Shown here in pieces: positions 37,999 to 54,300 of a stretch of DNA of 64,000 bases. The notes under the pieces are model-generated. The model searched no databases. It was not told the origin of the DNA and saw only the letters and a list, made by a program, of their open reading frames with translations. The position numbers were made by a program, and so were the translations under genes. The DNA lies in assembly GCA_024998595.1 (NCBI GenBank), contig JACOEK010000006.1, forward strand, positions 126,433 to 190,432, written 5' to 3'. The stretch is from Nitrospira sp. Lineage in GTDB: Bacteria > Nitrospirota > Nitrospiria > Nitrospirales > Nitrospiraceae. How positions within the stretch are numbered: the first letter of the stretch is position 1; each line of letters begins with the position of its first letter.

Positions 37999-38274
37999 TC
38001 AAGGCTTGGCGCGTTTTTTTTGTTCTTCCTCGGACGTCTTTCGGTACATGACATCCCATTCCGGACTGCCTTCCACAATCTGCCTCGTATATGAGGCCAG
38101 TTTCGCCCGGACTTTCTTATCAATGTCCGCTTCCAGGGCAAGTTCCGATGCCACTACGCGTTTGATTTCGCGCAAGACCTTTCCGTCATCCTCGGTCAGC
38201 CTGCATTGAGCGCTTTTCTTCAAGGCGCCAAGTATCAGGTGGGCAAGGTGGCTGGCTTTGTCGTCACTGATCAC
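37999..38274 (-). CDS. DUF507-family protein
   Basis: ISDDKASHLAHLI...EADIDKKVRAKL...EGSPEWDVMYRK. Confidence 0.75.
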   Translation of the reverse strand: MISDDKASHLAHLILGALKKSAQCRLTEDDGKVLREIKRVVASELALEADIDKKVRAKLASYTRQIVEGSPEWDVMYRKTSEEEQKKRAKP

Positions 38275-38307
38275 GGTTAGCGCTCCCGTCCGGAACGGTC
38301 AGGCGGC

Positions 38308-38589
38308 TCACAATATGATACCGCGCTCACGCACCAGCTTCTGTTTGATCATCGTGAACATCTTCTGATAGTCGACCTGCCCTTGCTCGATTTGCCGTTC
38401 GTAGGGCTGCATCATCCGGCGCACCTCGACGTTGAGCCGGTCTTCCACCATGAGCTCCTCGGTCATCGCCTGTTCCAACGACTCGCGGAGCGCCTTTCGA
38501 TCTCCGGTGACCTCGAGATAGCTCAACTCGTGCAATCGAGCGATCACCGAATCCGCCATATGATGAACCCGCTCCTTCGCCAGTCTCAT
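38308..38589 (-). CDS. DUF507-family protein
   Basis: MRLAKERVHHMA...EDRLNVEVR...DYQKMFTMIKQKLVRERG. Confidence 0.8.
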   Translation of the reverse strand: MRLAKERVHHMADSVIARLHELSYLEVTGDRKALRESLEQAMTEELMVEDRLNVEVRRMMQPYERQIEQGQVDYQKMFTMIKQKLVRERGIIL

Positions 38590-38626
38590 GGCAATCGCTC
38601 CCCGCTCGAATTAGTCCTGGAAGACC

Positions 38627-39037
38627 TTATGCAACCGGCTGCGCCGGCTCGATACGTTCCACCCGGATCGTGCTCGCGTTCATAGCCTGCCGCAACTTCT
38701 CCGCATCACCTACGACCCGCCCCACGACGTTCACACGGTCGGCAGGCACAGGATCAGCGCCCATGCTCATCGGCGTGCGTCCGAAGAAAATCGCCAGGAC
38801 CTGGCCGGCTCCCCAAAATGCCACGTCACCGATTTTGACTTGCGTCGTCGCTGTTTCGCGATGATCTTTCACGCCGGGAATTTTAAAATAGAACTCTTCG
38901 CCCCACACATTCAACGGCCCTTCCGCCGGCAAGGCCCGATAGAGCTCTTCGGCCGTTCTCGTTCCCTTCAACTCGGCCTCCAGTTGGACGCCGCCGACTG
39001 TGATTCGAATTCGTTTCATCGTGCCGTTCGTGGTCAT
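38627..39037 (-). CDS. Cyclophilin-like fold protein
   Basis: LPAEGPLNVWGEEFYF, GDVAFWGAGQVLAIFFGRTP, VNVVGRV. Confidence 0.8.
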   Translation of the reverse strand: MTTNGTMKRIRITVGGVQLEAELKGTRTAEELYRALPAEGPLNVWGEEFYFKIPGVKDHRETATTQVKIGDVAFWGAGQVLAIFFGRTPMSMGADPVPADRVNVVGRVVGDAEKLRQAMNASTIRVERIEPAQPVA

Positions 39038-39169
39038 GTCCCCTCATCCGCGCCGTAATACGCTACGCAACACCATAATGACGAAACTCCGCACCAGTCG
39101 CGGACTCTAACTTGTTTATCCCTTGAAATCAAGGTTACAATCCCGCCCGGAAGCTTCGCGACTGCTCTT

Positions 39170-39943
39170 ATGCTGACATCCACGTTCGTCCATTTGAAAG
39201 GTATAGGACCCTCAACTGAGCGGCGTCTATGGGAGGACGGCATTGCCGATTGGGCAACGTTCCGACGGGAGGCTCAACTGATCGGCATCGCGCCCGCGCG
39301 TAAAGCCGCCTACGACGAAGAGCTGGCCCTTGCGCAGGACCATCTCGACCTCCATAACCCCCGCTATTTTGCAGACTGCCTGCACACTCGGGATCATTGG
39401 CGTCTGTTTCAGACCTTCGGTGCCCGGGCACTGTACCTCGACATCGAAACCACAGGGCTCTCGGCCCGCGAGGGACAGGTGACCATCGTCGGACTGCATC
39501 GCCAGGGGCACATGCGCACCTTGATCCAAGGTCACTCTCTCACACAGGAAGCCATTCAAGACGAACTTGACCAGGCCGACCTGCTCATCACATTTTTCGG
39601 AACGGTGTTCGATATGCCCTATCTGCAAACCTGCTTTCCAGGCTTGCGGGTGCCGATTCCGCATTTCGATCTCTGTTTTGCCGCTAGACGCGTCGGCCTG
39701 CAAGGCGGGTTGAAGTCCATCGAACGGGAATTGGACATCGCACGGGAATCGGATCTGCTCCAACTCGACGGATTGGAAGCCGTTCGATTGTGGCAGCGCT
39801 ATCGCGCCGGCAACGCCGCGGCCCTGGATCAACTCATCCGGTACAATGCGGCCGACACCCAGAACCTTGAGCCCCTCGCGGCCTGCCTGTACGAGCGGCT
39901 CACGTTGCGATACGGGCCGCGGTCGCTCGGTCTGGTTGAATAA
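39170..39943 (+). CDS. RNase H-like (DEDD) exonuclease-domain protein with N-terminal HhH
   Basis: HLKGIGP HhH; YLDIETTG, TFFGTVFDMPYL, HFDL, YNAADT. Confidence 0.85.
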   Translation: MLTSTFVHLKGIGPSTERRLWEDGIADWATFRREAQLIGIAPARKAAYDEELALAQDHLDLHNPRYFADCLHTRDHWRLFQTFGARALYLDIETTGLSAREGQVTIVGLHRQGHMRTLIQGHSLTQEAIQDELDQADLLITFFGTVFDMPYLQTCFPGLRVPIPHFDLCFAARRVGLQGGLKSIERELDIARESDLLQLDGLEAVRLWQRYRAGNAAALDQLIRYNAADTQNLEPLAACLYERLTLRYGPRSLGLVE

Positions 39944-39944
39944 C

Positions 39945-40751
39945 GTGGAGACTCCTCGCGGCAGGTGGGAATGGACAGGATACGGGCAGACTGACCGTGG
40001 ACTTGTCCGCTCAAGCAACCAGGATGCCTTCCTCGTCGACAACCGGCGCCGACTGTGGGCTGTCGCCGACGGCATGGGTGGACATCCCGGTGGAGACGTG
40101 GCCAGCCGGATTGTCATGGACACCCTCGCCGACTTTTCACCGAGCCTCATTCGCAGCGCCGTGCCCCCCGGCGAGGACCAAGGCGAACAGCAATCCTTTC
40201 TCCTCACGACCATGGCGGAGCAGGCCCATGCCGCCGTCCGCGCCTATGCCGATCATCACCCGCCCTTCTACGGCATGGGAACCACACTGGTGATGGCGCA
40301 TCTGCTCCCTGAGCCCACCCCCCGCCTCCTCGTTCTCAATGTCGGCGACAGCAGGGCATATCTCGTCAGAGCGGGACGCATCATCCAATTGACTCGGGAC
40401 CATACCCTCATTGACGATTATGTGCGCGACGGCCGTCTCACTCCTGAACAGGCCGCTCGCCATCCGGACCGGCACGTCCTGACCCGCGCGATAGGGCTTG
40501 GCCTCGTCCTGGACAGCGATCTTTTTACGTTCGAGGTCCTCACCGGCGACCTGCTGGTGCTCTGTTCAGACGGCCTCACTAAGATGCTAACCGACGAGCG
40601 CATATTGGAGATCGCTCACTCGCACAAAGACCATCCACCACTCGCGACCGGTGCCCTGATCCAAGCTGCGCTCGATGCCGGCGGCATCGACAACATTACG
40701 GTCGTGGCCTGCGCCATGACTGGTATGCCCGATCAGGGAAATATCCATTGA
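39945..40751 (+). CDS. PP2C-family Ser/Thr protein phosphatase
   Basis: TDRGLVRSSNQDAF, VADGMGGH, GMGTT, NVGDSRAY, LCSDGL, GGIDNITV. Confidence 0.93.
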   Translation: METPRGRWEWTGYGQTDRGLVRSSNQDAFLVDNRRRLWAVADGMGGHPGGDVASRIVMDTLADFSPSLIRSAVPPGEDQGEQQSFLLTTMAEQAHAAVRAYADHHPPFYGMGTTLVMAHLLPEPTPRLLVLNVGDSRAYLVRAGRIIQLTRDHTLIDDYVRDGRLTPEQAARHPDRHVLTRAIGLGLVLDSDLFTFEVLTGDLLVLCSDGLTKMLTDERILEIAHSHKDHPPLATGALIQAALDAGGIDNITVVACAMTGMPDQGNIH

Positions 40752-40777
40752 CACTGCCTCAAGGCACCAGGTAGCCT
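40748..40777 (+). promoter_or_regulatory. Sigma70 promoter upstream of the 40826 CDS
   Basis: TTGACA-N18-TAGCCT, overlapping the PP2C stop codon. Confidence 0.55.
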
Positions 40778-40825
40778 CAAGTCAGTGGCACTCGCAGAGG
40801 AGGCCTCCGGCCTCTGTTCACGTCT

Positions 40826-41737
40826 ATGAACGCACAACCGACTCACTATCGTCCATTTCATCTGATGGTTCGAACGTGGCTTCTACTGGGGCCGCTCGTG
40901 GGCATATTGTGCGTTCCTGCGTCGCGAGCCGAGGAACCTCGTGATCCCGAGGCAACCCTGCGCACGCTGGTTCAGGCGAATGCCGAACGGGATCTGGCCA
41001 CCATGTCGAAATACATGTCACACGATGTGGATGCCATCGGGTATACGATCGATGGACGCAAATACATCGGATGGCCGGATCTGGCGGCCGATATGCGCAG
41101 CGAGTTTGACTCGGTGGTCAAACTGGAAATTCCGATCACCAGTCTTCATATGTGGACCAAAGGCGATATCGCGTGGTTCGCCATGGAGTCGAACTATATT
41201 CGATACAGCAACCCGGAAGACCTTACCCAGCGGATGGTGCTCCCCCTCCGAGAAACAGGGGTCCTGGAGCGCCGGAACGGCCGATGGATCCTCGTGGGCT
41301 GGCACGAATCCACACGTCCGCATGATGGGGAAGCGACACAGACGGCCACAGACAGCGCGGCGCTGCTTCATCGCGCTTCGGATACGCAGCCGGCTGTCCC
41401 GAATGGCGTCGACCTGAGCGGCCAATGGGAAGTGACGGAAATCGAAGACAATAAGAAATACGTCGCCACCCTGGATGCTCAGGGCACCGGTCCTTACACG
41501 TGGCAGGGCGGACAGTTTTCCACCACCAGCTTCAACGATCGACGCTGGCAGGGCACGTGGAAACAAACGGGAAACGATCGCGAGGGCGCTTTTGAAGTCA
41601 TTCTCTCGGAGGATGGCACCGAAGCAAAAGGCATCTGGTGGTATGTGCGTGTCGGCACCAGAGACAATATCCCGCCCCGGCAACATGGCGGCAGCTATCT
41701 GTGGAAACGACTCACCCCGCCTCCGACGGCTCCTTGA
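40826..41737 (+). CDS. Exported SnoaL/NTF2-like domain protein with a C-terminal beta domain
   Basis: LVQANAERDL...YIGW...GDIAWF...RETGVLERRNGRWILVGWHES; second domain starts DLSGQW. Confidence 0.75.
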   Translation: MNAQPTHYRPFHLMVRTWLLLGPLVGILCVPASRAEEPRDPEATLRTLVQANAERDLATMSKYMSHDVDAIGYTIDGRKYIGWPDLAADMRSEFDSVVKLEIPITSLHMWTKGDIAWFAMESNYIRYSNPEDLTQRMVLPLRETGVLERRNGRWILVGWHESTRPHDGEATQTATDSAALLHRASDTQPAVPNGVDLSGQWEVTEIEDNKKYVATLDAQGTGPYTWQGGQFSTTSFNDRRWQGTWKQTGNDREGAFEVILSEDGTEAKGIWWYVRVGTRDNIPPRQHGGSYLWKRLTPPPTAP

Positions 41738-41812
41738 CGGACGGGCGGTACTTCCCTACAGCGCTTCACACACACTCACGGACGGCCGGTCTGTTACAAC
41801 GAGGAGGGGCCT

Positions 41813-42814
41813 ATGAATCGTGCGCTTCTATTGCTAGTCATGTTATTGGGCGTCACGAGTACGGTGTATGCCGGCGGCGGACACGATCACCACGCCATTC
41901 CAACGATGCCGAGTCTCGGCGAAACAAAGCTGACCATCGAGGACCAGACTGTTACGCTCACGTTCGGCCCAGTGGATCTCCCGACCGGCCACGACGGCGA
42001 CTTAGCCTCCAGTATGCCGAAGAAGGTGTTTCAGTTGCCGGAAGACACCTACATGATCGGCTACAAGTCCGAAGTATTCACGAAGGATGGCAAGCCGCTC
42101 CCGAAGAATTACCTGCATCACATCCTTATGTTGAACAATGACAAACCAAGCGTCTCGTGCGATGGAGAGCCCTTGTTTTTTGCCGGGGCCGGACTGGAAA
42201 TGACAGAAGCCCGTTTCCCGGAGGGGTACGGAGTGAAGTTGGGCAAAGGCCAGAACCTCATGTCCGTTGTGGCGTTTTACCACAAGGCCCCGCCGACGAA
42301 AGACGTGATGGCCCGCTTTACGATGTACGTGGCTCCAAAGGGCGCGAAGGTCCAGGAGATGGATGTCTACCAGGTGGGCGTGAACATCGTGTGCTACAGC
42401 AAATTTGCCCAGCGGGGCGCGGACCAGACTGACGAAGGCATCGAGATCAAGCCGGGAGTCTCAGTCCTATCCGCGCCTCTGAAATTCAACATGGATGGCT
42501 GCGTCAAATTCGCCTACCCTCACGGGCATGACGAGCTCCTCATGGTGGCACTTGAGAATAAGACCTCAAAGGAGACGCTCCTCCGCACCGTCCCCGAGGT
42601 CGATGCCGACGGCGCATTCCGGGATTTCCGGCCCCATCAGGTCTACCGTGATGGCAAAGGATTTTCGGTGACGAAACAGGACGACTACGAAATGGTGATG
42701 GTTCACCATCACCTTCTCCAAAACCCCAATACTCACCATGGTATGGGTAACTATCTGCTCTACATGACGCCTGGCGCTTGCCAGCAAACGTCCACTACTG
42801 CCTCGGCGCACTAG
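41813..42814 (+). CDS. Secreted putative copper type II monooxygenase-like (PHM/DBH fold) protein
   Basis: Signal peptide; H102-H103, FPEGYG...H157, PHGH (H237, H239), M311; His-rich mature N-terminus; GAGGAGG SD. Confidence 0.6.
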   Translation: MNRALLLLVMLLGVTSTVYAGGGHDHHAIPTMPSLGETKLTIEDQTVTLTFGPVDLPTGHDGDLASSMPKKVFQLPEDTYMIGYKSEVFTKDGKPLPKNYLHHILMLNNDKPSVSCDGEPLFFAGAGLEMTEARFPEGYGVKLGKGQNLMSVVAFYHKAPPTKDVMARFTMYVAPKGAKVQEMDVYQVGVNIVCYSKFAQRGADQTDEGIEIKPGVSVLSAPLKFNMDGCVKFAYPHGHDELLMVALENKTSKETLLRTVPEVDADGAFRDFRPHQVYRDGKGFSVTKQDDYEMVMVHHHLLQNPNTHHGMGNYLLYMTPGACQQTSTTASAH

Positions 42815-42830
42815 ACGGAACCTCCGGGCT

Positions 42831-42858
42831 CCCACCACAGTGCAAGTGCTGTGGTGGG
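42831..42858 (+). terminator. Hairpin after the 42814 stop
   Basis: Perfect 10-bp stem CCCACCACAG/CTGTGGTGGG; no U-tract. Confidence 0.45.
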
Positions 42859-43184
42859 CTACCGCCGTCCAGGCGTCAGCACAAACACGCTGGCCCGTCT
42901 CCGGACTCCGGTTCCCAATCCGAACACTTCTCACGACTCAGTGACAACGAATCTGGTCACTTTTTTCCGCTTCGAATCGTATCTCCCCTACGGAAGTGGA
43001 ACCGCCCCCTCAGGCGGCGGACTGGGATTGTCAAGAAGGTGTATGATATTGAACCAGTCATGCAGTTCAAGCGGTTAGGGAAGGACAGATTTGTTCGCCT
43101 AAGAGGGAGAGCATGTTCATCACTGTACGGTGGTGCATTCCCCGGGGCACACACAGCTACCGGGCGTATTGAGCGCGCCCCTGC

Positions 43185-46100
43185 ATGAAGGCCATGAGAT
43201 CCTCGATGTCCTTGCTCGAACCCTCGCTACATATCCTCCTCATCAATGAGAATCCCGACGAAATCAAGCTGGTGACGACCAGCTTGAGAAGCTTCTTCGT
43301 CGGCTGCCGCATCGAAGCCGGTTACTCGTCTGAAGATGCTCTTGCATTCAGCCGCCAGGGCGACTGGCATATCATCCTCGTTGATCAAGATCTCAATCCG
43401 GAACGGGGCCTCGAGCTGCTCGCACGCCTTCGCCGCAATGCCCCCTACGCCGCGATTCTGCTTCAGACCAACGAGAGTGACTCGCAAACTGCCGTTCAAG
43501 CGCTGCAACACGGAGCCGACTTTTTGCTGTTCAAACGATCTCCCGGCTTTATCACTGAACTGCTCTTTTCGGTACAGGAGGCTCTCGAAAAGCGCGACCT
43601 GCAAATGAAGCTGGACCACACGTTTCAGCGACACTTGCGCGTCATTGAAACATTAAGCGACCTATTGTACGAACTCGATGCGGAAGGTCGCTTTGTCTAT
43701 GTGAGTCCAACCGTCACCGTGATGCTTGGATATACCGCAGAGGAGCTGGCCGGACGACACTACTCCCTCTTGCTTCCTCCTCAACAGGAGCCAGCCGCCC
43801 GTTTCCGGTTGAACGAGCGCCGGGCAGGCAGCCGTTCGATACGCCAAGTGGAATACACTCTGTACCGCAAGCCCCTCCCGGATAGTCCGCCGGTACCCAT
43901 CATCGTAGAAGTGACGGCGAAGGGACTGTTCGATTCCACCAATCGTTACCTCGGAACCGTCGGATTGCTACGTGATCTTTCTCAGCAGAAGGCCCAACAG
44001 ATCCGCTTGGCTGAACTGGAGTCACGCCTCCAGGAGACCGACCGCCAACTGACCCTCTCGCGTGAAGCAGCCCGGGTCTCTCGCCAATTACAGCAGCCCC
44101 TGACGTCGTTGCTTCAGGACTCACAACGATTGCTGACGTCCATCCAACACAGCCGGATCGAGCAACATGTTGAAACGATGATCGCCCAGGCTTCGCAAGC
44201 GAGCCAACTCGGGCATCAACTGGCAGAAGCAATTCGCGCTCACCCCATAGAATTTGTGCCTCTCGACCTGAACGATGTACTTCAGACGGTTGTCCAAACT
44301 GCACAAGGTGAGGCAGGCGAATCCGGATTGCTGCTTGCCACTCATTTTGCAGGCAACCTTCCAATCATCCTCGGTTCGCGTTCAGCTCTGGAAAATCTTG
44401 CGCACATCCTGCTCACCTATGCCCGTCACTACACCGTCCAAAACATGCCTCATCGGCTCATCCTGCAAACAGCACCACTGACCATGGAAACCCGTGGGGC
44501 TATCCCGCAAGAAGTCACGCCACCCTCGCGGCATGTTCAGACGTATGCGAGCTTTACGATTCGGGGAAGGGTTGGCGATCTCCGCCTAGCTCCGGACAGT
44601 ACACAAGGTTGCGACCATCCGGCGGAGAGTTTGGTTCAAGCACATCAGATTGTTCAGGTGCATCGAGGCGCCCTCGAAGTCGAACATACACCGGACCGTA
44701 GTTTGGCCATCACAGTTCGCATTCCTGCTTCAGATGACCTCTCGCTCACACCTCAGCATCGTGAGTCACCGCCGCCACCAACCTCGCCTACCCAGTTCGA
44801 TGTACACTATCCCTCCCGGTACGTCCCCGGGCAACGTCATGAACGCCGCCGCTCAGAACGCAAGCCATTCTCCTTACCTGTACAGTTGTCGATCGGCGGT
44901 ACGACCCTTCGGGGCCTGTTGCGCAATATGAGTACCGAAGGGGCGCTCCTGACCATCCGGGGGATGGAGACGTCCATCCACCTTCAACCGGCCTATGTCG
45001 TCATCAAGACACCGGTGAGTTTCCTGGAACTGCAGGGCGTGGTGCATGAACGACCATCTGCGGGTTTGCCTCTACCAGCCATCAAAGAGTTCGTTATTGC
45101 TTTTGCCCTCGCTGTCGATCATGAACGCAATGTGCTCCGATCGCTGCTTGAGGGATTACAGGATGGTTCGCCACAGATCACCTTCGAAGGTTTGATTCTC
45201 CCTCCCTCCCTGGGGACAGTGGGCCCCACCACCGATCTCATGTCATCTCTGCCTATACCGGAGGACCGGCGGGAAGCCGTTCGACTCAGCATGTCCTGTC
45301 CCGTTCAGGTGGATGAATCCCAGGGCTCCCCGACGCGTTGGTTCGGCCTGATCGTAAACTTGAGCCTGGACGGGGCATGCCTCGAACTGCCTTCAGATGT
45401 CGTCTTGGCCGGACTTCCGCAAGTCATCCAGCTGAGCCTTGTGGAATCGATCGAAATACTCCCTCACAGTTCCCAATCGCAAGGCTCTGACCAACGATTG
45501 ACGGGGCATATCGTCTGGAGACGTGCTGCGGAAAGGACTCCCGCACCCTCGCTCGCCGCAACAGGAGAACAGATCGGTATACGCTTTGACTCATTGTCCC
45601 CCGCCCAAGAACAGAGACTTCGTGGCCTCATGGAACCTGCGTTCCACGCGGGTCAGGATCCCGCCGAACAGCAGTCTGACGCTCCCGTTCTTACCGTGCC
45701 GCACACCCTTCAAAATCGTGACGGGTATACGATTGCGTTGCGGCATGACTTCCCCGCACTAGGCGGCGGAGAGCATGATCCCCTGGTGCTCCTCTGCCCG
45801 GGATACGGCACGACGCAGCACGCCTACGTGGCCCTGGCGTATACGCTGGCCTGCCGCGGGTTTCATGTGCTGCGCTATGATCACAGCCGCCACATAGGGC
45901 TCAGTGACGGCGACCCTTCGCAGACCACCTTCACCTCTCTCGAAGACGACTTGGATGCAGTATTGACCTTCGCCCAAGACAATTGGCCGGAAAGGCCCCT
46001 CACTCTCCTGGCGCCGGACCTCCTCGGTCGAATCGCACTGCGAAGACGAGATTGGCACAGACGACTTCGTCGCCTCCTTCTGCTCAATCCGATACTCGAC

Positions 46101-47387
46101 CTCGGCCAGTGCCTCATCACCCTCCATCACCGAGATCTGCTGCGCGAACATCTCAGCGGCACCCGTCTCGGACTGGGCAATCTTTTCGGCATTCCACTCG
46201 ACATTGACCATTTCCTGGCCGATGCCGTTGCAGCACAATATACGGATGTCACGGCCCTAGAGGATGAACTCACACACTGCGGAACAATGGTGGTAATCCT
46301 CACCGCCGGACAAGAAAGCCCTGACTGTTCGATTCCCGCCCCTCCGTTGACGCTCTTAAATGAACTGATCGCTCGGCTGGGATCCAAAGGCAGGAAAGTC
46401 ATGCTACCGTCGTCTACATTGACCGCCGGCCAGGTTGCACCGCCGACCCTACGCGCCAGTTGGCAACAACTTGCGCACCTCTGCCAAGCAGGCCAGGCTA
46501 TTCACGAGCCTGGTGCCGTCATGCTTCCGGCGCTTGCACGCGCAATGTCCACCCGTGCTCGATTCGAGCGCGATCAACTCCGCCACAAACAGGCCATTGG
46601 TACCACGAGTTACCGACGGCTGTGGGCGGCGCAAACCGATCTCACTCGCGCACTCGATGAGTTGCCGGCGCATTGGCACTCTATCGATCAGCTCTATCAA
46701 CTGTTGCAGCCGCTTGACGGCAATCTTGCGCTCCTGGACATCGGATGCGGGATGCATTCCTTTGCCCGGCTGCTCCTGCTGAATCTTTCGTACCGCCTGC
46801 GCGCCCAAACATGGCACCATACCAAACCCCTCCGGTACGTCGGCATGGACTTCTCCGCTACCGCACTGCAGGCTGCACGAGCCTCGACAAAAGAGGCACT
46901 GCAACACCTCGACAAACTGTTTTCCGGACGCATCTCACCGCCCACTCCCGTCACCCAACAATGGGTGCTCGGCGCGTCTGTAGAAACGCTGCCCTTTGCG
47001 GACCGATCATTTGACCGTGTGGTGGCGAACCTCTCTCTCAGTTTTGCGCGTTCACCGATACACACGCTGCGAGAATTCTTCCGTGTTCTTCGCCCGGGCG
47101 GAAAACTTATCTTGAGCACCTTCACCCCTACCGCAGACATAGCCCGCCTCTACCGACCGGCCTTACATGAACTCGGCATCGACACTTTTTCAGGAGCGCC
47201 ACGTTTGGCCTTACACCGCATGGCGCAATGCTCTGTGGCATTACGTACAGGTCAATTACATACGTTTGAAGAGGATACTCTGAGCACCCAGCTTTCCCGC
47301 TTCACACCTGTTCCCCCACGACTCGTTCGCACGCTCTCCGGACAGATCATGCTCGCCGCCGCTGAAAAACCGGATTCCTCTAGCTGA
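43185..47387 (+). CDS. 1400-aa multidomain signalling enzyme: REC-PAS-degenerate HisKA/HATPase-PilZ-PilZ-LuxD-like alpha/beta hydrolase-SAM methyltransferase
   Basis: REC (D67, T95, K117); PAS (ELDAEGRFVYVSP...LGYTAEELAG); VSRQLQQPL at the H-box; two RxxxR plus NxSxxG pairs; GFHVLRYDHSRHIGLSDG; LLDIGCG...FADRSFD...VLRPGG. Confidence 0.85.
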   Translation: MKAMRSSMSLLEPSLHILLINENPDEIKLVTTSLRSFFVGCRIEAGYSSEDALAFSRQGDWHIILVDQDLNPERGLELLARLRRNAPYAAILLQTNESDSQTAVQALQHGADFLLFKRSPGFITELLFSVQEALEKRDLQMKLDHTFQRHLRVIETLSDLLYELDAEGRFVYVSPTVTVMLGYTAEELAGRHYSLLLPPQQEPAARFRLNERRAGSRSIRQVEYTLYRKPLPDSPPVPIIVEVTAKGLFDSTNRYLGTVGLLRDLSQQKAQQIRLAELESRLQETDRQLTLSREAARVSRQLQQPLTSLLQDSQRLLTSIQHSRIEQHVETMIAQASQASQLGHQLAEAIRAHPIEFVPLDLNDVLQTVVQTAQGEAGESGLLLATHFAGNLPIILGSRSALENLAHILLTYARHYTVQNMPHRLILQTAPLTMETRGAIPQEVTPPSRHVQTYASFTIRGRVGDLRLAPDSTQGCDHPAESLVQAHQIVQVHRGALEVEHTPDRSLAITVRIPASDDLSLTPQHRESPPPPTSPTQFDVHYPSRYVPGQRHERRRSERKPFSLPVQLSIGGTTLRGLLRNMSTEGALLTIRGMETSIHLQPAYVVIKTPVSFLELQGVVHERPSAGLPLPAIKEFVIAFALAVDHERNVLRSLLEGLQDGSPQITFEGLILPPSLGTVGPTTDLMSSLPIPEDRREAVRLSMSCPVQVDESQGSPTRWFGLIVNLSLDGACLELPSDVVLAGLPQVIQLSLVESIEILPHSSQSQGSDQRLTGHIVWRRAAERTPAPSLAATGEQIGIRFDSLSPAQEQRLRGLMEPAFHAGQDPAEQQSDAPVLTVPHTLQNRDGYTIALRHDFPALGGGEHDPLVLLCPGYGTTQHAYVALAYTLACRGFHVLRYDHSRHIGLSDGDPSQTTFTSLEDDLDAVLTFAQDNWPERPLTLLAPDLLGRIALRRRDWHRRLRRLLLLNPILDLGQCLITLHHRDLLREHLSGTRLGLGNLFGIPLDIDHFLADAVAAQYTDVTALEDELTHCGTMVVILTAGQESPDCSIPAPPLTLLNELIARLGSKGRKVMLPSSTLTAGQVAPPTLRASWQQLAHLCQAGQAIHEPGAVMLPALARAMSTRARFERDQLRHKQAIGTTSYRRLWAAQTDLTRALDELPAHWHSIDQLYQLLQPLDGNLALLDIGCGMHSFARLLLLNLSYRLRAQTWHHTKPLRYVGMDFSATALQAARASTKEALQHLDKLFSGRISPPTPVTQQWVLGASVETLPFADRSFDRVVANLSLSFARSPIHTLREFFRVLRPGGKLILSTFTPTADIARLYRPALHELGIDTFSGAPRLALHRMAQCSVALRTGQLHTFEEDTLSTQLSRFTPVPPRLVRTLSGQIMLAAAEKPDSSS

Positions 47388-47411
47388 AACAAAAGGGCGC
47401 ATATATACTTC

Positions 47412-47439
47412 ACTCACTAGCATAAATCGTGCAGTGAGT
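47412..47439. promoter_or_regulatory. Inverted repeat between the fusion gene and the kinase gene
   Basis: ACTCACT-a-GCA-taaatcg-TGC-AGTGAGT; function unknown (operator or RNA hairpin). Confidence 0.35.
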
Positions 47440-47493
47440 CAGGCGACACCACGGCAAACCTGGTGTCTGGATTGATATTCCCCCCACGGGACT

Positions 47494-48777
47494 ATGACGC
47501 TCCACCCGAACAACCGGCACATGCCCGTCCTTTCAGCATCCATGGATATCATCCGACTGATCGCGGACTTTGCTCACACTCTGGGATCTGCGAGGGATCT
47601 GTCAGTGCTCGGAGATCCAATTGTGGCGACCCTTTCGCAGTGCACCAGACTGCCCGAAGCGGCATTATGGATACGTGAGTCGGAGGAGGGTCAGTATCGT
47701 CTCCTGGTGTCTCACGGCCACAGCAATCCCTCTCCATTACCATCGACTTTTCCCGTTGGTCACCCGTTCGTCACAGCTCTTTCCCGGAAGCCATACGTGA
47801 TTCAGGCCGACCAAGAACGCTCCTCACCGACGTACTTGGCCATGACGACGGTCCGAGCAACCCTCTGTCTCGCACTACGGAACAAGGGACGACTCCTCGG
47901 GCTCTGCATCCTGGGTCCGCTCGGCATGGAAAAGCATCTCGACGAAGAGACCATGGCCATCGTTGAGACGATCGCGCACATCGCAGCCAACAGTCTCGAT
48001 CATTACTTGGCGCAAGACGACCTCCGCCGTTCGACCACGTTGATGCGACGGACAGATCGACTTCGTTCTTTGGAAATCATGGCCGGCGGGTTTGCCCATG
48101 AAATTCGCAACCCCCTCACATCCATCAAGACGTTTGTCCAGCTGGCCCCGCAACGGCAGCAGGATCCGGTCTTCATCAAAGAGTTCAGCAAACTGGCCAT
48201 AGAAGACATTCACCGCATCGAACGCCTGCTCCATGAGATTCTCGACTATGCCAGCTACATGACCCCTCGACCCACCGAGGTAGACGTGAACGAACTCGTC
48301 GCCTCCTGCATCGGCTTCGTTTCGTCGAGCGCGGCGCACCGCGGCATTCAATTACAGACTGATTTGTCACCTCAGCTCCCGCCGCTTTCGCTTGATCGTC
48401 AACAAATCAAACAAGTCCTGTTGAATCTGCTGTTGAATGCTCTGGATGCGATGCCGAACGGCAATGGAGTCATTCGGATCCATACGCGCCTCCTGACGCA
48501 GGCGGGCCGGCCGTCCTGTGTGCAATTGCAAGTCGAGGACGAAGGATGCGGTATCGCACCCGACCACCTCGAACATATTTTCGATCCCTTTTTCAGCACC
48601 AAACATTCCAATAGCGCCAGCGACGGAGCCGGACTCGGGCTGACGACCGCGCATCAGATTGTCAGGGAACATAGCGGCACCCTCACGGTTGAAAGCCGCG
48701 TGGGAGCGGGCTCCACTTTTTCCGTGAATCTTCCAGTTCCGGATACAGGCCTCACAGTGCCAGCAGCACGGGAGTAA
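47494..48777 (+). CDS. Soluble GAF-domain sensor histidine kinase
   Basis: N-terminal GAF-like region with no TM; AGGFAHEIRNPLTSIK, QVLLNLLLNA, DEGCGI, FDPFFSTK, GAGLGL. Confidence 0.93.
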   Translation: MTLHPNNRHMPVLSASMDIIRLIADFAHTLGSARDLSVLGDPIVATLSQCTRLPEAALWIRESEEGQYRLLVSHGHSNPSPLPSTFPVGHPFVTALSRKPYVIQADQERSSPTYLAMTTVRATLCLALRNKGRLLGLCILGPLGMEKHLDEETMAIVETIAHIAANSLDHYLAQDDLRRSTTLMRRTDRLRSLEIMAGGFAHEIRNPLTSIKTFVQLAPQRQQDPVFIKEFSKLAIEDIHRIERLLHEILDYASYMTPRPTEVDVNELVASCIGFVSSSAAHRGIQLQTDLSPQLPPLSLDRQQIKQVLLNLLLNALDAMPNGNGVIRIHTRLLTQAGRPSCVQLQVEDEGCGIAPDHLEHIFDPFFSTKHSNSASDGAGLGLTTAHQIVREHSGTLTVESRVGAGSTFSVNLPVPDTGLTVPAARE

Positions 48778-48778
48778 C

Positions 48779-50191
48779 ATGAAAAAACGAGTACTACTTG
48801 TCGATGATGAGCCGCGTGTCCGGGCCTCGCTGAGAACGGTGCTGGAACCGACGTATGAAATTCTCGAGGCGGCGGATGCTGCCGAGGGCCTCCGGAGTTT
48901 CAAGCACGATGCTCCCGATCTGGTCCTCCTGGATGTGATCCTGCCGGGAGCCGACGGTCTGTCCGCGCTACAGACAATGCGAACCGAAAATCGAGCCGTT
49001 CCGGTGATTATGCTGACCGGCACCAAAGCAGTGAAAACAGCCGTCGATGCCATGAAGCTTGGGGCCGCCGACTATTTGTCCAAACCATTCGACGTCGAGG
49101 AACTTCAGATTGTCATCGAGCGAACGCTGGGCAAGCAGGAGCTGGAGCAGGAAGTCCGTCAATTGCGCGCCCAGGTTGTGCAGCGATATGCCTTCCACAA
49201 CCTCATCGGCAAAAGCCCCTCCATGCAGGAAATCTATGCCAAAATCGAGCAAGTGGCCGATAGCCGCACAACCGTGCTGGTCACCGGTGAGAGTGGAACC
49301 GGAAAAGAACTGGTCGCGAAAGCGATTCACTACAACAGCGCCAGGCGCGAACGCCCATTCATCGCACTGAATTGCGCGGCCCTGCCTGAAACGCTCATCG
49401 AAAGCGAGTTGTTCGGCCATGAAAAAGGTTCGTTTACTGACGCCACGGCACGACGCGTGGGACAGTTCGAGCTGGCGCACACGGGCACGCTGTTTCTGGA
49501 TGAAATCGGCGACCTCAGTCCGGCAACACAGGCGAAGCTGTTGCGTGTATTGCAGGAACGGGAATTCACGAGAGTCGGTGGGGTCCAGTCCATCAAGGTC
49601 GATGTCAGGATCGTGGCCGCGACCAACAAAAACCTCGATGAGATGGTCAGAAAAAACCAGTTCCGCGAAGACTTGTACTACCGCATCAACGTGATTGCGC
49701 TCTACCTCCCGCCGTTGCGCGAACGAGGCGAGGATATTGCCCTGCTGGCTAAGCACTTTCTTTCGAAACGCATTGAGGAAGAAAAACGCCCCCCCCAGGA
49801 ATTCACCAAAGACGCACTCGAGTTGATTTCACATTATCCTTGGCCGGGCAACGTGCGCGAGATGGAGAACATCATCGAACAGGCGTTCATCTGGTCGAAA
49901 GGTTCCACGGTGATCACACCGGAGCATTTGCCGAACATTTTGCGGACCGATACCCGCTCATCATCCCTCCGGGATGACACCCTCGCCGGACGATTGTCAT
50001 TGGAAAAGGCCGTCATGGAGTTCGAACGCGAAATCATTCTGGATGCGCTCAAGCGAACGACATACGTACAAACTCATGCGGCCACCATGCTGGGAATCAG
50101 CCGTCGCATGCTGAAGTATCGCATGGACACCTTGGGAATCAGCAGGCCCGACAGCGGTGGGCAGGCCGAATCTCCATTGCCTCAGGAATGA
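48779..50191 (+). CDS. Sigma54-dependent response regulator (NtrC/AtoC family)
   Basis: REC domain; GESGTGKE, ESELFGHEKGSFTDA, LFLDEIG, FREDLYYR, WPGNVRE; C-terminal Fis HTH. Confidence 0.96.
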   Translation: MKKRVLLVDDEPRVRASLRTVLEPTYEILEAADAAEGLRSFKHDAPDLVLLDVILPGADGLSALQTMRTENRAVPVIMLTGTKAVKTAVDAMKLGAADYLSKPFDVEELQIVIERTLGKQELEQEVRQLRAQVVQRYAFHNLIGKSPSMQEIYAKIEQVADSRTTVLVTGESGTGKELVAKAIHYNSARRERPFIALNCAALPETLIESELFGHEKGSFTDATARRVGQFELAHTGTLFLDEIGDLSPATQAKLLRVLQEREFTRVGGVQSIKVDVRIVAATNKNLDEMVRKNQFREDLYYRINVIALYLPPLRERGEDIALLAKHFLSKRIEEEKRPPQEFTKDALELISHYPWPGNVREMENIIEQAFIWSKGSTVITPEHLPNILRTDTRSSSLRDDTLAGRLSLEKAVMEFEREIILDALKRTTYVQTHAATMLGISRRMLKYRMDTLGISRPDSGGQAESPLPQE

Positions 50192-50319
50192 CACAGGTTG
50201 GCACAGCAGGAGCTGCATCTGTCTCATATTGTTCACGGCCCAGCAGGCCACGCATCAAATATCTTGTGGCCTGAAGCAAAGAGACCTGCTATATATTGGC
50301 CGTTTCATGCACACATGAG

Positions 50320-50335
50320 CGGTACAGGTTTTGCT
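50320..50335 (+). promoter_or_regulatory. Candidate sigma54 (-24/-12) promoter
   Basis: CGGTACAGGTTTTGCT: GG-N10-GC with TTGCT at -12, 45 nt before ATG 50380. Confidence 0.5.
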
Positions 50336-50379
50336 TTTACTATTTCCTGAAGTTCGCAATGCACCCGGGAGCGCTCTGG

Positions 50380-51522
50380 ATGGGAACTCAGGCACCACCT
50401 GAACAGATCAGCCTAAAACCCTCGGTCCTGGTCGTCGATGATGAAACAGGCCCGCGGGACGCGCTGAAAGTTATTCTTCGCCCCTTCTTCACCATCCACT
50501 CAGCCGACAACGCCAAATCCGCGCTTCGGGTTCTGAAAGACCAGCACATCGATCTCATCACGCTGGATCAAAAATTACCCGACCGCCAGGGTATCGACCT
50601 GCTACAGGACATCAAGCAGGATTACGCAGACATCGAAGTCATCATCATTACCGGCTATGGCAGCCTGAAGTCGGCTATGGAAGGGATCCGGCACGGCGCG
50701 GCCGGCTATCTCCTCAAGCCGTTCAACGTGACCGAACTCATCACGCTGATCAACCAGACCTTGGAGAAAAAGCAGCGGCTGGACTACTTGCGATCGTTTC
50801 TGAAAACTTCGACCGCCTTGTGGGGCAACGAACAGGAAGTGGCGCAAGCGTGGAAGGATCTGCAATCGCACTACTTCGCGATCGGCAATGCCTCAACTGA
50901 ATCACATGGAAGTGCGGCGGACGTCACGGCGCTCATTCCATTGTTATCCGATTTGCTCGAAGCCAAGGACCGGCAGCTCCTCAACCATTGCAGCCGTGTG
51001 AGTTTCTATGCCTCGCTTCTCGCCAACCAGCTGACTCTCCCGCTACCCGATCAGAAGGCCCTGGCGCTGGGAGCCTTTCTCCACGATATCGGCAAGATCA
51101 GCCTCTCCAATTATAAGTACTCCGCGGATGATGATGAGAACCTGAAAACCAACACCCATTCGAGGGAGTGCTTCGAAGCGGGAGCCCGGATGCTGTTACC
51201 GCTCGGATTCCAGGCCGAGGTCGGACAAATCGTGGCTTATCATCAAGAACGCTTTGATGGTGTCGGCAACCCACATGGGCTGGAGGGCGAGGGCATCCCG
51301 ATTCTGGCACGTATCGTCGCCATTGCACAGGCATTCGACAACCTGACGGTAGATATGCCTGGGCACCAACCGACCTCCATCGATGAGGCTATTCGACAAA
51401 TCTTACTGCAGGCCGATACATACTTCGATCCCAAGCTGACGGAGCTCTTCGCTCAAGTGGTGCGGGAATGCAAGTCTTCTCTGCCGGCGCTCGCGATTGC
51501 CAAAACCTCGCCGACGAACTGA
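50380..51522 (+). CDS. Response regulator with a degenerate HD-GYP-like domain
   Basis: REC (VVDDE, LDQKL, LLKPF); NHCSRV, LHDIGK, YHQERFDGVGNP, IAQAFD; GGGAG SD before 50380. Confidence 0.88.
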   Translation: MGTQAPPEQISLKPSVLVVDDETGPRDALKVILRPFFTIHSADNAKSALRVLKDQHIDLITLDQKLPDRQGIDLLQDIKQDYADIEVIIITGYGSLKSAMEGIRHGAAGYLLKPFNVTELITLINQTLEKKQRLDYLRSFLKTSTALWGNEQEVAQAWKDLQSHYFAIGNASTESHGSAADVTALIPLLSDLLEAKDRQLLNHCSRVSFYASLLANQLTLPLPDQKALALGAFLHDIGKISLSNYKYSADDDENLKTNTHSRECFEAGARMLLPLGFQAEVGQIVAYHQERFDGVGNPHGLEGEGIPILARIVAIAQAFDNLTVDMPGHQPTSIDEAIRQILLQADTYFDPKLTELFAQVVRECKSSLPALAIAKTSPTN

Positions 51523-51530
51523 TCCTTCCG

Positions 51531-53216
51531 TTACCGCCGATCCTTCGCGCTCGCAATCATGTCAGCCGCCGCCGCCCGCGCATTTTTGGTCACCGTCACG
51601 CCCGCCAACATCCGCGCTACTTCGGCTTCCTGTTCGTCCGGGCTCAGTAACCGGACCTGCGTTACGGTTCGATTGTGTCGAACCTGCTTTTCCACGAGGT
51701 AATGCGCATGTGCTTGAGAGGCCACCTGGGGAAGATGTGTGACGCACAACACCTGATGGTGTCGACTGAGACTCCTGAGCCGCGCGCCCATCACCTCTGC
51801 GACCGCCCCTCCGACACCGGCATCCACTTCATCAAAAATCAGGACCGGCACTCGATCGCTCTCAGCCAGAATCGTTTTCAACGCGAGCATGACCCGAGAC
51901 AATTCTCCTCCCGAGGCCACCTTGGCCAGCGGCTTGAGCGGTTCCCCCGGATTCGCTGAAAACACGAACTCTACCGTATCCTGACCTGTCTGACTAAAGG
52001 GTGCATCACCCGACAGGCGCGAGACCTCCACCCCAAAACGGGTCCGCTCCATACGGAGTGCGCCCAATTCCTTCATCACCTGAACCGTTAATTTCTTGGC
52101 CGCTTCAAGCCGCTTGCGAGACAGACGCTCTGCAACATCGCGTAGGCTGAACGCCCCTTTCTCGACCGCGCGCGTCAACTCCTGCAGGTGGGTGCCGGCA
52201 TCATCCAGTTGGGCCAGTTGAACTCGCAGGGACTCCTGTAAAGTCAGCACGGCATCGAGCGAGCCCCCATATTTTTTTATCAGTCGATGTAACCGGTCCA
52301 GGCGCTGCTCAATCTCCAGCAATCGGCCAGGATTGGCCTCTACTTGATCGCGGTACCGGCGAACTTGCTCAGCCAGGTCCCTCAATGGAACGACCGCGTC
52401 ATCCACGGTCTTGGTCCATTCAATCGTCGTGGCATCGACCGACTCCATTCTGGATGTCAACTTGCGGGCACCAGCCAGCAGACTTAACACTCCTTGGTCG
52501 CCTGCGTAGAGCATCTCATGGAGTTGGTCAGACAACTCACCGAGTTGCTGGCTGTGCATCAACCGTGGACGCTCCTGGTCAAGCCGGACATCTTCGCCTG
52601 CCTCGATTCCCGCATCTGTAATCTCCTGGAACTGAAACCGCAGCAGATCCTCCCGTTCGCGACGCTGCGCGATCTGTGCAGTCATGGATTCCAGTTCGGC
52701 CACCCGGTCCTGCCAATGTTTATGCGCGATGTGATAGTCCTGCCGGAGTGCGTGAAGCCTACCGAATGCGTCCAGCGCGTCCATTTGGGCAGAAGGCGAC
52801 AACAGCGATTGCTGTTCGTGTTGTCCGTGCACGTCGACCAACGCGCCGCCCAGTTCTTCCAGAAGGTGGACCGGGCAGAGGTTACCGTTCAGATAGGTCC
52901 GGTTGCGACCCGTGCGTGAGATGACTCGCCGAATGAGAATATCCGTCTCGCCGGCGCGCGCAAAGCCCTTGCTCTGTAGCAACTCAAGAAGGGGATGGTC
53001 CGGAGTCAGCACACAGGCGGCTTCAAGCTCGGCTTCTTCGGCCTGAGCCCGAATCTGATCGGTAGAAGCACGACCTCCGACCAGAAGGGTGACCGCATCG
53101 ATGAGGAGGGATTTTCCGGCGCCGGTTTCACCGGTAAGCACAATGAAACCGGCGCCAAAGGTGACGGCCAGCTGCTCGATCACACCAAAATTCGAGATGC
53201 GCAGCTCGGTCAGCAT
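51531..53216 (-). CDS. recN: DNA repair protein RecN
   Basis: LTGETGAGKS, VDVHGQH, ASGGELSR, LIFDEVDAGVGG, VTHLPQVA. Confidence 0.97.
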   Translation of the reverse strand: MLTELRISNFGVIEQLAVTFGAGFIVLTGETGAGKSLLIDAVTLLVGGRASTDQIRAQAEEAELEAACVLTPDHPLLELLQSKGFARAGETDILIRRVISRTGRNRTYLNGNLCPVHLLEELGGALVDVHGQHEQQSLLSPSAQMDALDAFGRLHALRQDYHIAHKHWQDRVAELESMTAQIAQRREREDLLRFQFQEITDAGIEAGEDVRLDQERPRLMHSQQLGELSDQLHEMLYAGDQGVLSLLAGARKLTSRMESVDATTIEWTKTVDDAVVPLRDLAEQVRRYRDQVEANPGRLLEIEQRLDRLHRLIKKYGGSLDAVLTLQESLRVQLAQLDDAGTHLQELTRAVEKGAFSLRDVAERLSRKRLEAAKKLTVQVMKELGALRMERTRFGVEVSRLSGDAPFSQTGQDTVEFVFSANPGEPLKPLAKVASGGELSRVMLALKTILAESDRVPVLIFDEVDAGVGGAVAEVMGARLRSLSRHHQVLCVTHLPQVASQAHAHYLVEKQVRHNRTVTQVRLLSPDEQEAEVARMLAGVTVTKNARAAAADMIASAKDRR

Positions 53217-53234
53217 GCCGCTGAGAGTCTGGCG

Positions 53235-53582
53235 CTAGGCAGCGCCGGAATGTTGAGCAAGAAGCGTATCGATGATCTCTTTAAATTGGCGTTTAGGACG
53301 CGCACCGACCAGCCGTTCTACGGCCTGACCGTTTTTGAAAAACAGAATGGTCGGAATACTCATCACTTGATAACGGCCCGCGATTTCGGGGTTTTCATCG
53401 GTATTGAGTTTACGGACTTTTATTTTGCCCGCATATTCCGTTGCAAGTTCATCGACGATCGGAGCGACCATCTGACAAGGGCCGCACCACACCGCCCAAA
53501 AATCTACCATGACCAATTCGGATGCCTTCATGACATCCTCATCCCACGTTGCATCAGTCGCTTTCAAAGCATCGCCTGCCAC
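53235..53582 (-). CDS. trxA: Thioredoxin
   Basis: VDFWAVWCGPC; AAGGAGG SD before GTG 53582. Confidence 0.97.
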   Translation of the reverse strand: MAGDALKATDATWDEDVMKASELVMVDFWAVWCGPCQMVAPIVDELATEYAGKIKVRKLNTDENPEIAGRYQVMSIPTILFFKNGQAVERLVGARPKRQFKEIIDTLLAQHSGAA

Positions 53583-53653
53583 AATACCCTCCTTCTCTAC
53601 CCACGCACTGCTATCTGATCCACGTCCTGAAGCGGCTTCAGGCACTGTTCGTC

Positions 53654-53683
53654 ATCCTATAACATGGTTTTGCGGAGAGTCAA
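53654..53683 (-). promoter_or_regulatory. Sigma70 promoter of trxA-recN
   Basis: TTGACT-N18-TAGGAT. Confidence 0.5.
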
Positions 53684-53684
53684 A

Positions 53685-54251
53685 TCACGGCCTCACCCAT
53701 TGCCACTGAGGAGGCGCGGCAGACCACCACTCACCCGGTCTTGCTTGCCGCCATGCCGCCTGCTCCTGCCAAAGCTGGTTGACCAGCGGCTCATCCAAGC
53801 GAGCCGCCATAGCCGCGGTGATATCAGCCTGCCGCTGCACGGCCTGCTGGATCAACTCCTTCGCAATCCGCGCCAGGACATCCGGCGGATCGAGTAAATC
53901 CTCCACTCGTCCCGTGGATAAATTCAGATAGAGATGCTCGACGCGAACCCATTGATCGGTACTCGCCAAGTGCTGCAGATAGCCGTCGAGAGCATGGTAC
54001 GCATAGGTCAGATACACATAGCTACGAGCGGAGGGCGCATCCCGTACTTCTGCCTGACAGGCCTCCAGCGCCTGGCGGTAATCACCAGCCCGCAAGAACA
54101 CGGCTGCTCGTTCCAGGTGCACTCTGTGTTCTGCCGCGGAAAGACCGGGCGGATATATCTCCTGGCCGGCGATCGTCAATAACAGCAGGCCGGTTGCGAG
54201 GAGGATACGCAGGCTGCGTCGGGCTACGATTGCCTTGTTCCTTGCGGTCAT
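53685..54251 (-). CDS. Hypothetical exported TPR-like protein
   Basis: Signal-like segment followed by AAVFLRAGDYRQAL helical repeat; start placed at ATG 54251. Confidence 0.65.
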   Translation of the reverse strand: MTARNKAIVARRSLRILLATGLLLLTIAGQEIYPPGLSAAEHRVHLERAAVFLRAGDYRQALEACQAEVRDAPSARSYVYLTYAYHALDGYLQHLASTDQWVRVEHLYLNLSTGRVEDLLDPPDVLARIAKELIQQAVQRQADITAAMAARLDEPLVNQLWQEQAAWRQARPGEWWSAAPPQWQWVRP

Positions 54252-54300
54252 GCTTGGGAACCTCGTCACAGGGCCCGGTAAGAATACACCTGAGCTGTAC

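Follow-up and report, generated by a model that had tools for sequence, protein, structure and literature searches.

The window analysed here is a stretch of 64,000 nucleotides from a Nitrospira sp. (GenBank contig JACOEK010000006.1, positions 126,433 to 190,432), and the system in question lies between its positions 43185 and 51522, where four co-oriented open reading frames (ORFs) encode proteins that are all predicted to be cytoplasmic; their domains were assigned by a Pfam and NCBIfam scan. The first gene (43185-47387, on the plus strand, like every domain, motif and promoter element of the cassette mentioned below) encodes a fusion protein of 1400 residues that belongs to clade A of the LuxD-methyltransferase family. 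It is followed by the genes of a GAF-HisKA-HATPase_c histidine kinase of 427 residues (47494-48777), an NtrC/AtoC-type sigma54 activator of 470 residues with REC, Sigma54_activat and HTH_8 domains (48779-50191) and a REC-HD_5 (HD-GYP) response regulator (50380-51522, alternative start 50296). The first-pass annotation of this DNA had described four co-oriented genes without a transmembrane (TM) sensor, a kinase and an NtrC-type regulator 1 nt apart, and three REC domains sharing one intact kinase, and all of this could be confirmed. The NtrC-type gene starts 1 nt past the kinase stop; the REC domains belong to the fusion protein, the activator and the HD-GYP protein, and the internal kinase of the fusion protein has no phospho-acceptor His. 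A hydrophobic-window test revealed no plausible TM segment in any of the four proteins, the single signal in the cassette being one window inside the first PilZ domain, compared with 11 in a paralogous kinase on contig 6. The lack of a TM sensor holds locally, but the same genome and deeper relatives have a seven-transmembrane (7TM) version of the kinase. As predicted from these domains, the cassette is a circuit of two-component and cyclic di-GMP (c-di-GMP) signalling that follows a synthase-sensor logic and is based on an enzyme-kinase pair not characterised before.

From its N-terminus the fusion protein comprises a REC domain (residues 17–118), a PAS domain (150–270), a histidine-kinase-like module (around 285–515) and two PilZ domains (around 550–816), and its C-terminal half is formed by an Acyl_transf_2/Hydrolase_4 domain (PF02273, PF12146; 835 to around 1100) and a Methyltransf_11 domain (1165–1335). 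Column counts were taken from an alignment of 74 full-length orthologue sequences (clade A). The REC domain (43233..43538) keeps Asp67 in 71/74, Thr95 in 66/74 and Lys117 in 72/74, with a mean column conservation of 0.75, and the PAS domain (43632..43994; PF00989, E 2.9e-10) reaches 0.76. The following module (44037..44729), which could be aligned to AtoS (265-510) and NifL, is composed of a part resembling the dimerisation and histidine phosphotransfer (DHp) domain and a part resembling the catalytic and ATP-binding (CA) domain of histidine kinases. It is a pseudo-kinase: the H-box column (300) is occupied by Arg in 60/74 sequences and Gln in 7/74, with His in none, and neither the N-box Asn nor the glycines of the G1 and G2 boxes (ATP lid) are present. 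The DHp-like part is conserved and the CA-like part poorly so (0.50). A true H-box (VAHELSSPL) is retained in some long proteins among the clade B relatives, which indicates that the internal kinase module was once functional. Both PilZ domains bear the RxxxR and N-x-S-x-x-G motifs of c-di-GMP binding, kept in 60–74 of the 74 orthologues. In the first (44832..45164) they read R555-x3-R559 and N581-x-S583-x2-G586 (Arg in 73–74 sequences, Asn in 66, Ser in 67, Gly in 74), and in the second (45264..45632; PF07238, E 9e-17) R696-x3-R700 and N725-x-S727-x2-G730 (Arg in 74, Asn in 70, Ser in 60, Gly in 74).

A closer look at the alpha/beta-hydrolase domain with the LuxD fold (45687..46484) showed that its catalytic triad is gone. 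The nucleophilic Ser is replaced by Asp945 (codon 46017-46019), with Asp in this column in 71/74 clade A orthologues, the acid is Glu, and the His position, located by alignment to the paralogue and to the LuxD structure 1THT, is Thr in the window protein and variable across the clade. The domain scores 28.4 bits with PF02273 (cut-off 20.3 bits) and 30.5 bits with the NCBIfam equivalog of LuxD (NF052253), far below the 420-bit cut-off of the latter. In the AlphaFold2 model residues 826–1400 have a predicted local distance difference test (pLDDT) score of 89.7; the best neighbour in the PDB is LuxD itself (1THT, E 5.5e-13, template modelling score TMt 0.76), next to monoglyceride lipases and esterases, and the LuxD fold is retained in this model. 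Conservation within the fold is 0.70 in the N-terminal part and 0.52 in the C-terminal part with the loops of the acid and the His. The class I S-adenosylmethionine (SAM) methyltransferase domain (46677..47189; PF08241, E 2.9e-13) keeps motif I, D-I-G-C-G (Asp1185 in 70/74, Gly1187 and Gly1189 in 73/74 each), and the acidic residue of strand beta2 (Asp1222, 65/74). Its profile found generic class I matches alone in the PDB, over 50–70 residues and including a phosphatidylethanolamine N-methyltransferase, so that no substrate class can be read from them. Domain by domain, purifying selection is seen in the REC, PAS, DHp-like, first PilZ and methyltransferase domains and in the first two-thirds of the LuxD fold, and is relaxed in the CA-like part and in the LuxD segment that would bear the acid and the His. 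Because the hydrolase active site is lost, the protein is better read as a regulator than as a synthase: a regulatory descendant, or conserved pseudoenzyme, of a hybrid kinase/enzyme with eroded catalytic sites is more likely than a signal synthase. The idea of a "fusion enzyme" acting as the synthase, as first put forward, does not fit with a triad that reads Asp/Glu/Thr. Another long member of the family, encoded by a 1441-codon frame of Nitrospirae bacterium NS_7 (VBOJ01000002.1; L072:3376-7698), has an intact H-box VAHELSSPL and an independent loss of the LuxD triad (Gly/Gly/Tyr); at this locus there is no separate kinase gene and the NtrC gene comes directly next.

Orthologues of the fusion protein form about 74 full-length clusters, all of them from Nitrospira/Nitrospiraceae, and the gene is present in 122/151 Nitrospiraceae genomes sampled and in 34/39 genera. 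The genes come in the same order even where the fusion proteins share just 31–48% identity, and the cassette appears to be vertically inherited in the Nitrospiraceae (genus Nitrospira, N. defluvii-like). The 74 triad-less sequences of clade A and the 120 sequences of clade B form separate groups in a tree built from the LuxD-methyltransferase module; in clade B the Ser-Asp-His triad is intact in 113/120 sequences sampled. Two copies of the module are found in this genome (G000) and in all 17 other genomes of the same genus sampled. The second copy (G000:C6:761207-767050 = L006:8208-14051) is a PilZ-PilZ-LuxD-methyltransferase protein of 933 residues, followed 33 nt on by the gene of a HisKA_7TM-GAF kinase of 1002 residues; the pair is flanked by Pup-ligase/proteasome genes, with no response regulator adjacent. 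Ser, Asp and His are all conserved in its LuxD domain, aligned to 1THT over 233 residues, and its kinase is 45% identical to the window kinase (E 3e-111), the H-box helix being nearly the same. The window kinase has all its boxes intact, namely FAHEIRNPL (H), LLNALDAM (N), DEGCGI (G1), FDPFFSTK (F) and GAGLGL (G2), and its HisKA and HATPase_c domains both score over the Pfam cut-offs. Two deep-branching Nitrospiraceae (L007 and L008) carry, at the same syntenic site, a REC-PAS-...-PilZ-LuxD-methyltransferase gene with Ser-Asp-His, a 7TM-GAF kinase, NtrC and REC-HD-GYP; there the kinase gene (976 and 977 codons) overlaps the enzyme gene by 4 nt and the NtrC gene by about 30 nt. These comparisons demonstrate, as far as the sequences can tell, that the duplication in the lineage of the window took in enzyme and kinase together. 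Evidently the contig-6 copy kept the catalytic triad and the membrane domain and the window copy kept the regulators, its kinase having lost the 7TM domain. The ancestral operon presumably consisted of REC-PAS-(histidine kinase)-PilZ-PilZ-LuxD(Ser-Asp-His)-methyltransferase, a 7TM-GAF kinase, the NtrC-type activator, a sigma54 promoter and REC-HD-GYP.

The pairing of enzyme and kinase is not limited to this family of bacteria. A scan of the genome collection with a clade B query retrieved full-length LuxD-methyltransferase genes from Elusimicrobiota, Omnitrophota and Opitutaceae/Verrucomicrobiota metagenome-assembled genomes (MAGs), all of which keep Ser-Asp-His and the motif LDAGCGNG. In every locus with enough downstream DNA a HisKA_7TM kinase homologue starts at most about 100 nt past the end of the enzyme gene, except in L079, where it lies upstream. 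In an uncultured Opitutales MAG (CAYQKH010000028.1; L083:5950-9795) both appear to be encoded in one 1281-codon frame, perhaps an enzyme-sensor fusion of the Rosetta-stone kind, although a sequencing frameshift could also produce it. No other evidence that enzyme and kinase would work together is as strong as this pairing, which, unlike synteny, is independent of the collinearity of Nitrospiraceae genomes. A synthase-sensor-regulator cassette, as had been proposed at first, gains from the cross-phylum pairs, from the paired duplication and from the overlapping genes of the deep-branching loci, but the enzyme of the window itself lacks the triad.

The NtrC-type regulator (PF00072, PF00158 with E 3e-75, PF02954) has Asp52, the Walker A motif GESGTGKE, the Walker B motif LFLDEIG and a Fis-type helix-turn-helix. 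Its sigma54-contact loop reads GSFTDA compared with GAFTGA, with the F-T core kept and two positions changed. A single rpoN gene is found in the genome (G000:C4). A predicted -24/-12 promoter (cGGtAC-N5-TTGCt, 50320..50335), conserved in position, lies ahead of the HD-GYP gene. The start of this gene is most likely ATG 50380, which matches the orthologues, rather than TTG 50296, and with ATG 50380 the motif is placed 44 nt upstream of the gene and not inside the ORF, so that the earlier statement that the motif precedes the gene holds with this start and fails with the other. The bare pattern is at the level of chance (23 matches with two mismatches in the window against 30.6 expected), but its position is conserved. 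In the spacer between the NtrC and HD-GYP genes, compared between the window and five loci with fusion proteins 31–48% identical, GG and GC stay in register despite a mean column identity of 54%. A scripted scan for GG-N10-GC with at least 8/11 consensus positions, 33–53 nt before the HD-GYP start, found it in 7/8 loci including two deep-branching ones, the eighth reading GG...AC. Upstream of the promoter, a box CCTGCTATATATTGGCC (50285..50301), whose CTAYATAT is invariant across the family, is a candidate operator or bending site; a genome-wide search for second sites of this box and of TATCTTGTGGCCTGAA gave none that was convincing, a near-match on contig 1 lying inside a coding region. No sigma54 site could be seen before the fusion and kinase genes in the window. 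Just past the stop of the fusion gene, a TATACT box (47404..47409), invariant in 6/6 loci in a spacer otherwise 45% identical, is a candidate -10 element of the kinase-NtrC unit. In three other loci a GG-N10-GC site is placed 30–41 nt before the fusion gene (L003 and L005, both at about 9955-9970, and L007 at about 9945-9960), and in those lineages the enzyme gene may be sigma54-dependent. The genome (4.2 Mb) encodes 32 sigma54 enhancer-binding proteins for its single rpoN, an unusually large repertoire.

The HD-GYP domain was compared with PmGH (4MCW), PA4781 (4R8Z), V-cGAP3 (5Z7C) and its orthologues. By PmGH numbering the window protein keeps His189, His221, Asp222 and His276 (the first His of HHE), and shows Gln for Glu185, Cys for His250, Gln for His277 (HHE to HQE), Gln for Asp305 and GNP for GYP. 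The equivalents of Glu185 and Asp305 are both Gln in most members of the orthologue family, GNP is found throughout the genus of the window, and HQE together with the change of the middle His to Cys is found in its subclade. In one of the two deep-branching loci (L008) all ligand positions are kept, with Glu at the Glu185 equivalent and Glu replacing Asp305. As metal ligands and the GYP motif are lost, the phosphodiesterase activity of the window protein is doubtful, and so is a feedback loop onto PilZ through it. Of the suggested c-di-GMP feedback, the receiving end is supported by the binding motifs of both PilZ domains, but the HD-GYP end is eroded.

Several characterised systems resemble the cassette in part. 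In Ralstonia solanacearum the phcBSR(Q) system comprises the methyltransferase PhcB, which makes methyl 3-hydroxy-fatty-acid esters, the kinase PhcS and the regulators PhcR and PhcQ. Here, too, the gene of a protein with a SAM-methyltransferase comes before those of a histidine kinase and a response regulator, and a fatty-acyl methyl ester is the class of product proposed. The differences are that this methyltransferase shares its polypeptide with a LuxD-type hydrolase (joined in Nitrospirota by two PilZ domains), that the kinase has a HisKA_7TM-GAF architecture or, for the window copy, a soluble GAF one, that the regulator is a sigma54 activator and that the window enzyme is eroded. The methyltransferase matches generic class I families only, and the likeness to PhcB is one of gene logic. 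With rpfF/rpfC/rpfG of Xanthomonas (diffusible signal factor, DSF) the cassette shares the arrangement of a lipid-type synthase, a sensor kinase and a REC-HD-GYP protein linked to c-di-GMP, the fourth protein having the architecture of RpfG. Unlike in rpf, a crotonase domain (RpfF, ECH) occurs in none of the proteins, the HD-GYP gene has a predicted sigma54 promoter that is presumably driven by NtrC, the HD-GYP protein is not the sole output, and its active site is eroded in the genus. The phcBSR- or rpfFCG-like logic noted at first survives as a resemblance in gene order, but the window has neither a LuxD triad nor a crotonase and its HD-GYP ligand set is incomplete. Structurally, the hydrolase domain comes closest to LuxD of Vibrio harveyi, a myristoyl-acyl carrier protein (ACP) thioesterase/acyltransferase (1THT, PF02273), and differs from it in the missing Ser and His, in the family score and in being fused to methyltransferase and signalling domains. 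By analogy only, the plant gibberellin receptor GID1 is a comparable case, as an alpha/beta-hydrolase fold that is under selection after loss of the catalytic His, beside an active paralogue family; the protein described here is bacterial and multidomain, and no homology beyond the superfamily is claimed. PrsK and PrsR (XrtA/PEP-CTERM) are among the closest named relatives of the GAF-kinase core and of the NtrC-type regulator, and the contig-6 kinase also matches the membrane part of PrsK. Identity with them was rejected on the scores (TIGR02916, 118.2 and 143 bits for the two kinases against 300; TIGR02915, 439.7 bits for the regulator against 502.6), and no PEP-CTERM or exosortase genes were seen in the cassette neighbourhoods. 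Full-text literature searches found neither a description of the cassette nor a ligand for HisKA_7TM.

On balance, the window cassette is probably the regulatory arm of a signalling system of enzyme and sensor that has been duplicated and whose active enzyme and 7TM kinase are encoded elsewhere in the genome. The soluble GAF kinase would phosphorylate the NtrC-type activator, as would probably the contig-6 7TM kinase, because its H-box helix is nearly identical. The activator would then act on the conserved sigma54 promoter of the REC-HD-GYP gene, and the other two REC domains of the cassette, in the HD-GYP and 1400-residue proteins, may receive phosphate from the same kinase or kinases. The 1400-residue protein would integrate phosphorylation of its REC domain, an input at the PAS domain and c-di-GMP bound by two canonical PilZ domains. 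It would act by way of its methyltransferase domain, with SAM motifs kept, and/or as a scaffold whose dead hydrolase domain binds a ligand. The active LuxD-methyltransferase would probably yield an acyl group freed from its carrier and then methylated, and this product is the best candidate cue for the 7TM and GAF kinases; such a cue could pass between cells or report the lipid state of the cell itself.

Several observations weigh against this reading. The assignment of the promoter to the adjacent activator is drawn from adjacency and conservation only, since the genome holds 32 sigma54 activators, and the analysis of the CCTGCTATATATTGGCC box together with the genome-wide search identified no upstream activator site for the regulator. 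Between the window and contig-6 kinases, the GAF domains differ far more than the catalytic cores do. Synteny runs on into the housekeeping genes RecN, LptD and FolC, so that conserved order within the Nitrospiraceae is by itself weak evidence. One near-complete genome (G114; L046, G114:C1:2738000-2756000) keeps the soluble GAF kinase, NtrC and HD-GYP and has lost the fusion gene, another (G059; L047, G059:C1:1013500-1031500) keeps NtrC and HD-GYP and has lost both the fusion and the kinase genes, and no LuxD-methyltransferase was found anywhere in either genome. In these distant genera NtrC is 76–79% identical, compared with 30–35% for the fusion protein. These deletions imply that kinase and regulator do not strictly need the enzyme family. 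In addition, many genera have the triad-less copy alone (one match each), and there the regulatory arm would work without an active paralogue. The invariant core, as judged from what is retained, is formed by NtrC, the sigma54 promoter and REC-HD-GYP, with the kinase and the enzyme as dispensable input modules. Co-conservation of the genes among relatives, the point of the synteny check suggested earlier, is seen in the order kept across the Nitrospiraceae but is not strict, given the losses in these two genomes.

An alternative that we regard as possible, though unlikely, is that the system serves intracellular lipid or membrane homeostasis: c-di-GMP would control how the active LuxD-methyltransferase remodels a pool of acyl-ACP or lipid, the 7TM kinase would read the state of the membrane that results, and the window cassette would tune envelope and biofilm genes that depend on c-di-GMP or sigma54. 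The hydrolase neighbours (LuxD, lipases and esterases) and the phosphatidylethanolamine N-methyltransferase match agree with such a role, as do the polytopic kinase partner, with at least 11 hydrophobic segments, the cytoplasmic location of all enzymes and the fact that no exporter is encoded in the cassette. Sigma54 regulons commonly concern the cell exterior, according to PMC3162934. However, no lipid-biosynthesis genes are linked in the Nitrospiraceae loci, and homeostasis accounts neither for the soluble GAF kinase nor for a dead-enzyme copy under purifying selection.

A more detailed scheme goes further, and is rather improbable. Pairs of LuxD-methyltransferase and HisKA_7TM kinase would constitute a lipid-derived signalling of the acyl methyl ester type in Nitrospirota, Omnitrophota, Elusimicrobiota and Verrucomicrobiota, the synthase of Nitrospira being gated by c-di-GMP via PilZ. 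The 1400-residue protein of the window would, since the duplication, be a GID1-like, cytoplasmic dead-hydrolase receptor and integrator that binds the product of its paralogue and couples it to phosphorylation, c-di-GMP and methyltransferase output, and the GAF kinase, NtrC and the sigma54 promoter would set the level of a degenerate HD-GYP effector.

The original proposal taken literally, that the 1400-residue protein makes a membrane-permeant fatty-acyl methyl ester, that the soluble GAF kinase senses it and that an active HD-GYP protein feeds back via c-di-GMP and PilZ, as in phc- or rpf-like quorum sensing, is doubtful indeed. It would explain the order synthase-kinase-regulator, the intact SAM motifs, the canonical PilZ motifs and the same operon in relatives with an intact enzyme. 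The strong conservation of Asp945 (71/74) also speaks for it, as there are other alpha/beta hydrolases with an Asp nucleophile, for example haloalkane dehalogenases and epoxide hydrolases. The general-base His is nevertheless missing, its position being variable in a poorly conserved acid/His loop region; the HD-GYP protein lacks GYP in the whole genus and has lost two further His ligands in the subclade; and the soluble kinase is present in G114 without any such enzyme. Finally, that the four genes merely adjoin through regional collinearity, with a fusion protein unrelated to the two-component system, is very improbable. In its favour, the flanks (RecN, thioredoxin, LptD and FolC; RNase H-like, PP2C and SnoaL) are equally syntenic, the fusion gene can be lost alone, and the kinase and HD-GYP genes each have a conserved promoter-like box of their own upstream. 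Against it stand the gene overlaps of L007 and L008 and the joint duplication of enzyme and kinase, and the same pair in three other phyla, plus an apparent fusion, already contradicts it.

Nitrospira are the main nitrite oxidisers, some of them complete ammonia oxidisers, of soils, waters and wastewater plants, where they form dense aggregates whose regulation is poorly understood. The cassette, as the regulatory arm proposed above, would join two-component phosphorylation, sigma54 transcription, the reading of c-di-GMP and a lipid-type enzyme family, and its conservation and these four links recommend it as a candidate site at which aggregation or the state of the envelope is controlled. The recurrence of the enzyme and 7TM kinase pair in four phyla means that the kinase ligand might be found via the product of the neighbouring enzyme. 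If the cue is diffusible, it would represent a new class of bacterial signal, and if not, a new c-di-GMP-controlled loop of lipid homeostasis. The window copy would in turn be a natural case of an enzyme turned regulatory pseudoenzyme after duplication.

The fusion gene is preceded by a leader of about 370 nt (42815-43184) in which the blocks CCCCTACCAAAG, GACTGGG and TGTATGnTATT are invariant across six diverged loci. RNAalifold detected no conserved RNA structure in this leader, and an Rfam scan of 38000-56000 with E up to 1 gave no match, hence no c-di-GMP riboswitch. Consensus scans for sigma70 promoters and terminators were uninformative, with counts at or below the expectation from shuffled sequence. 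An ORF of 136 codons (42778-43188) was rejected as spurious, being uncalled in every orthologous locus and lying in poorly conserved intergenic DNA. Further upstream, a gene at 41813-42814 encodes a protein of 333 residues without Pfam or NCBIfam match that is 65–73% identical in distant genera. It is still found at the site in genomes that have lost the fusion and kinase genes, and G114 and G059 both retain the upstream PP2C-SnoaL-333-residue gene series there.

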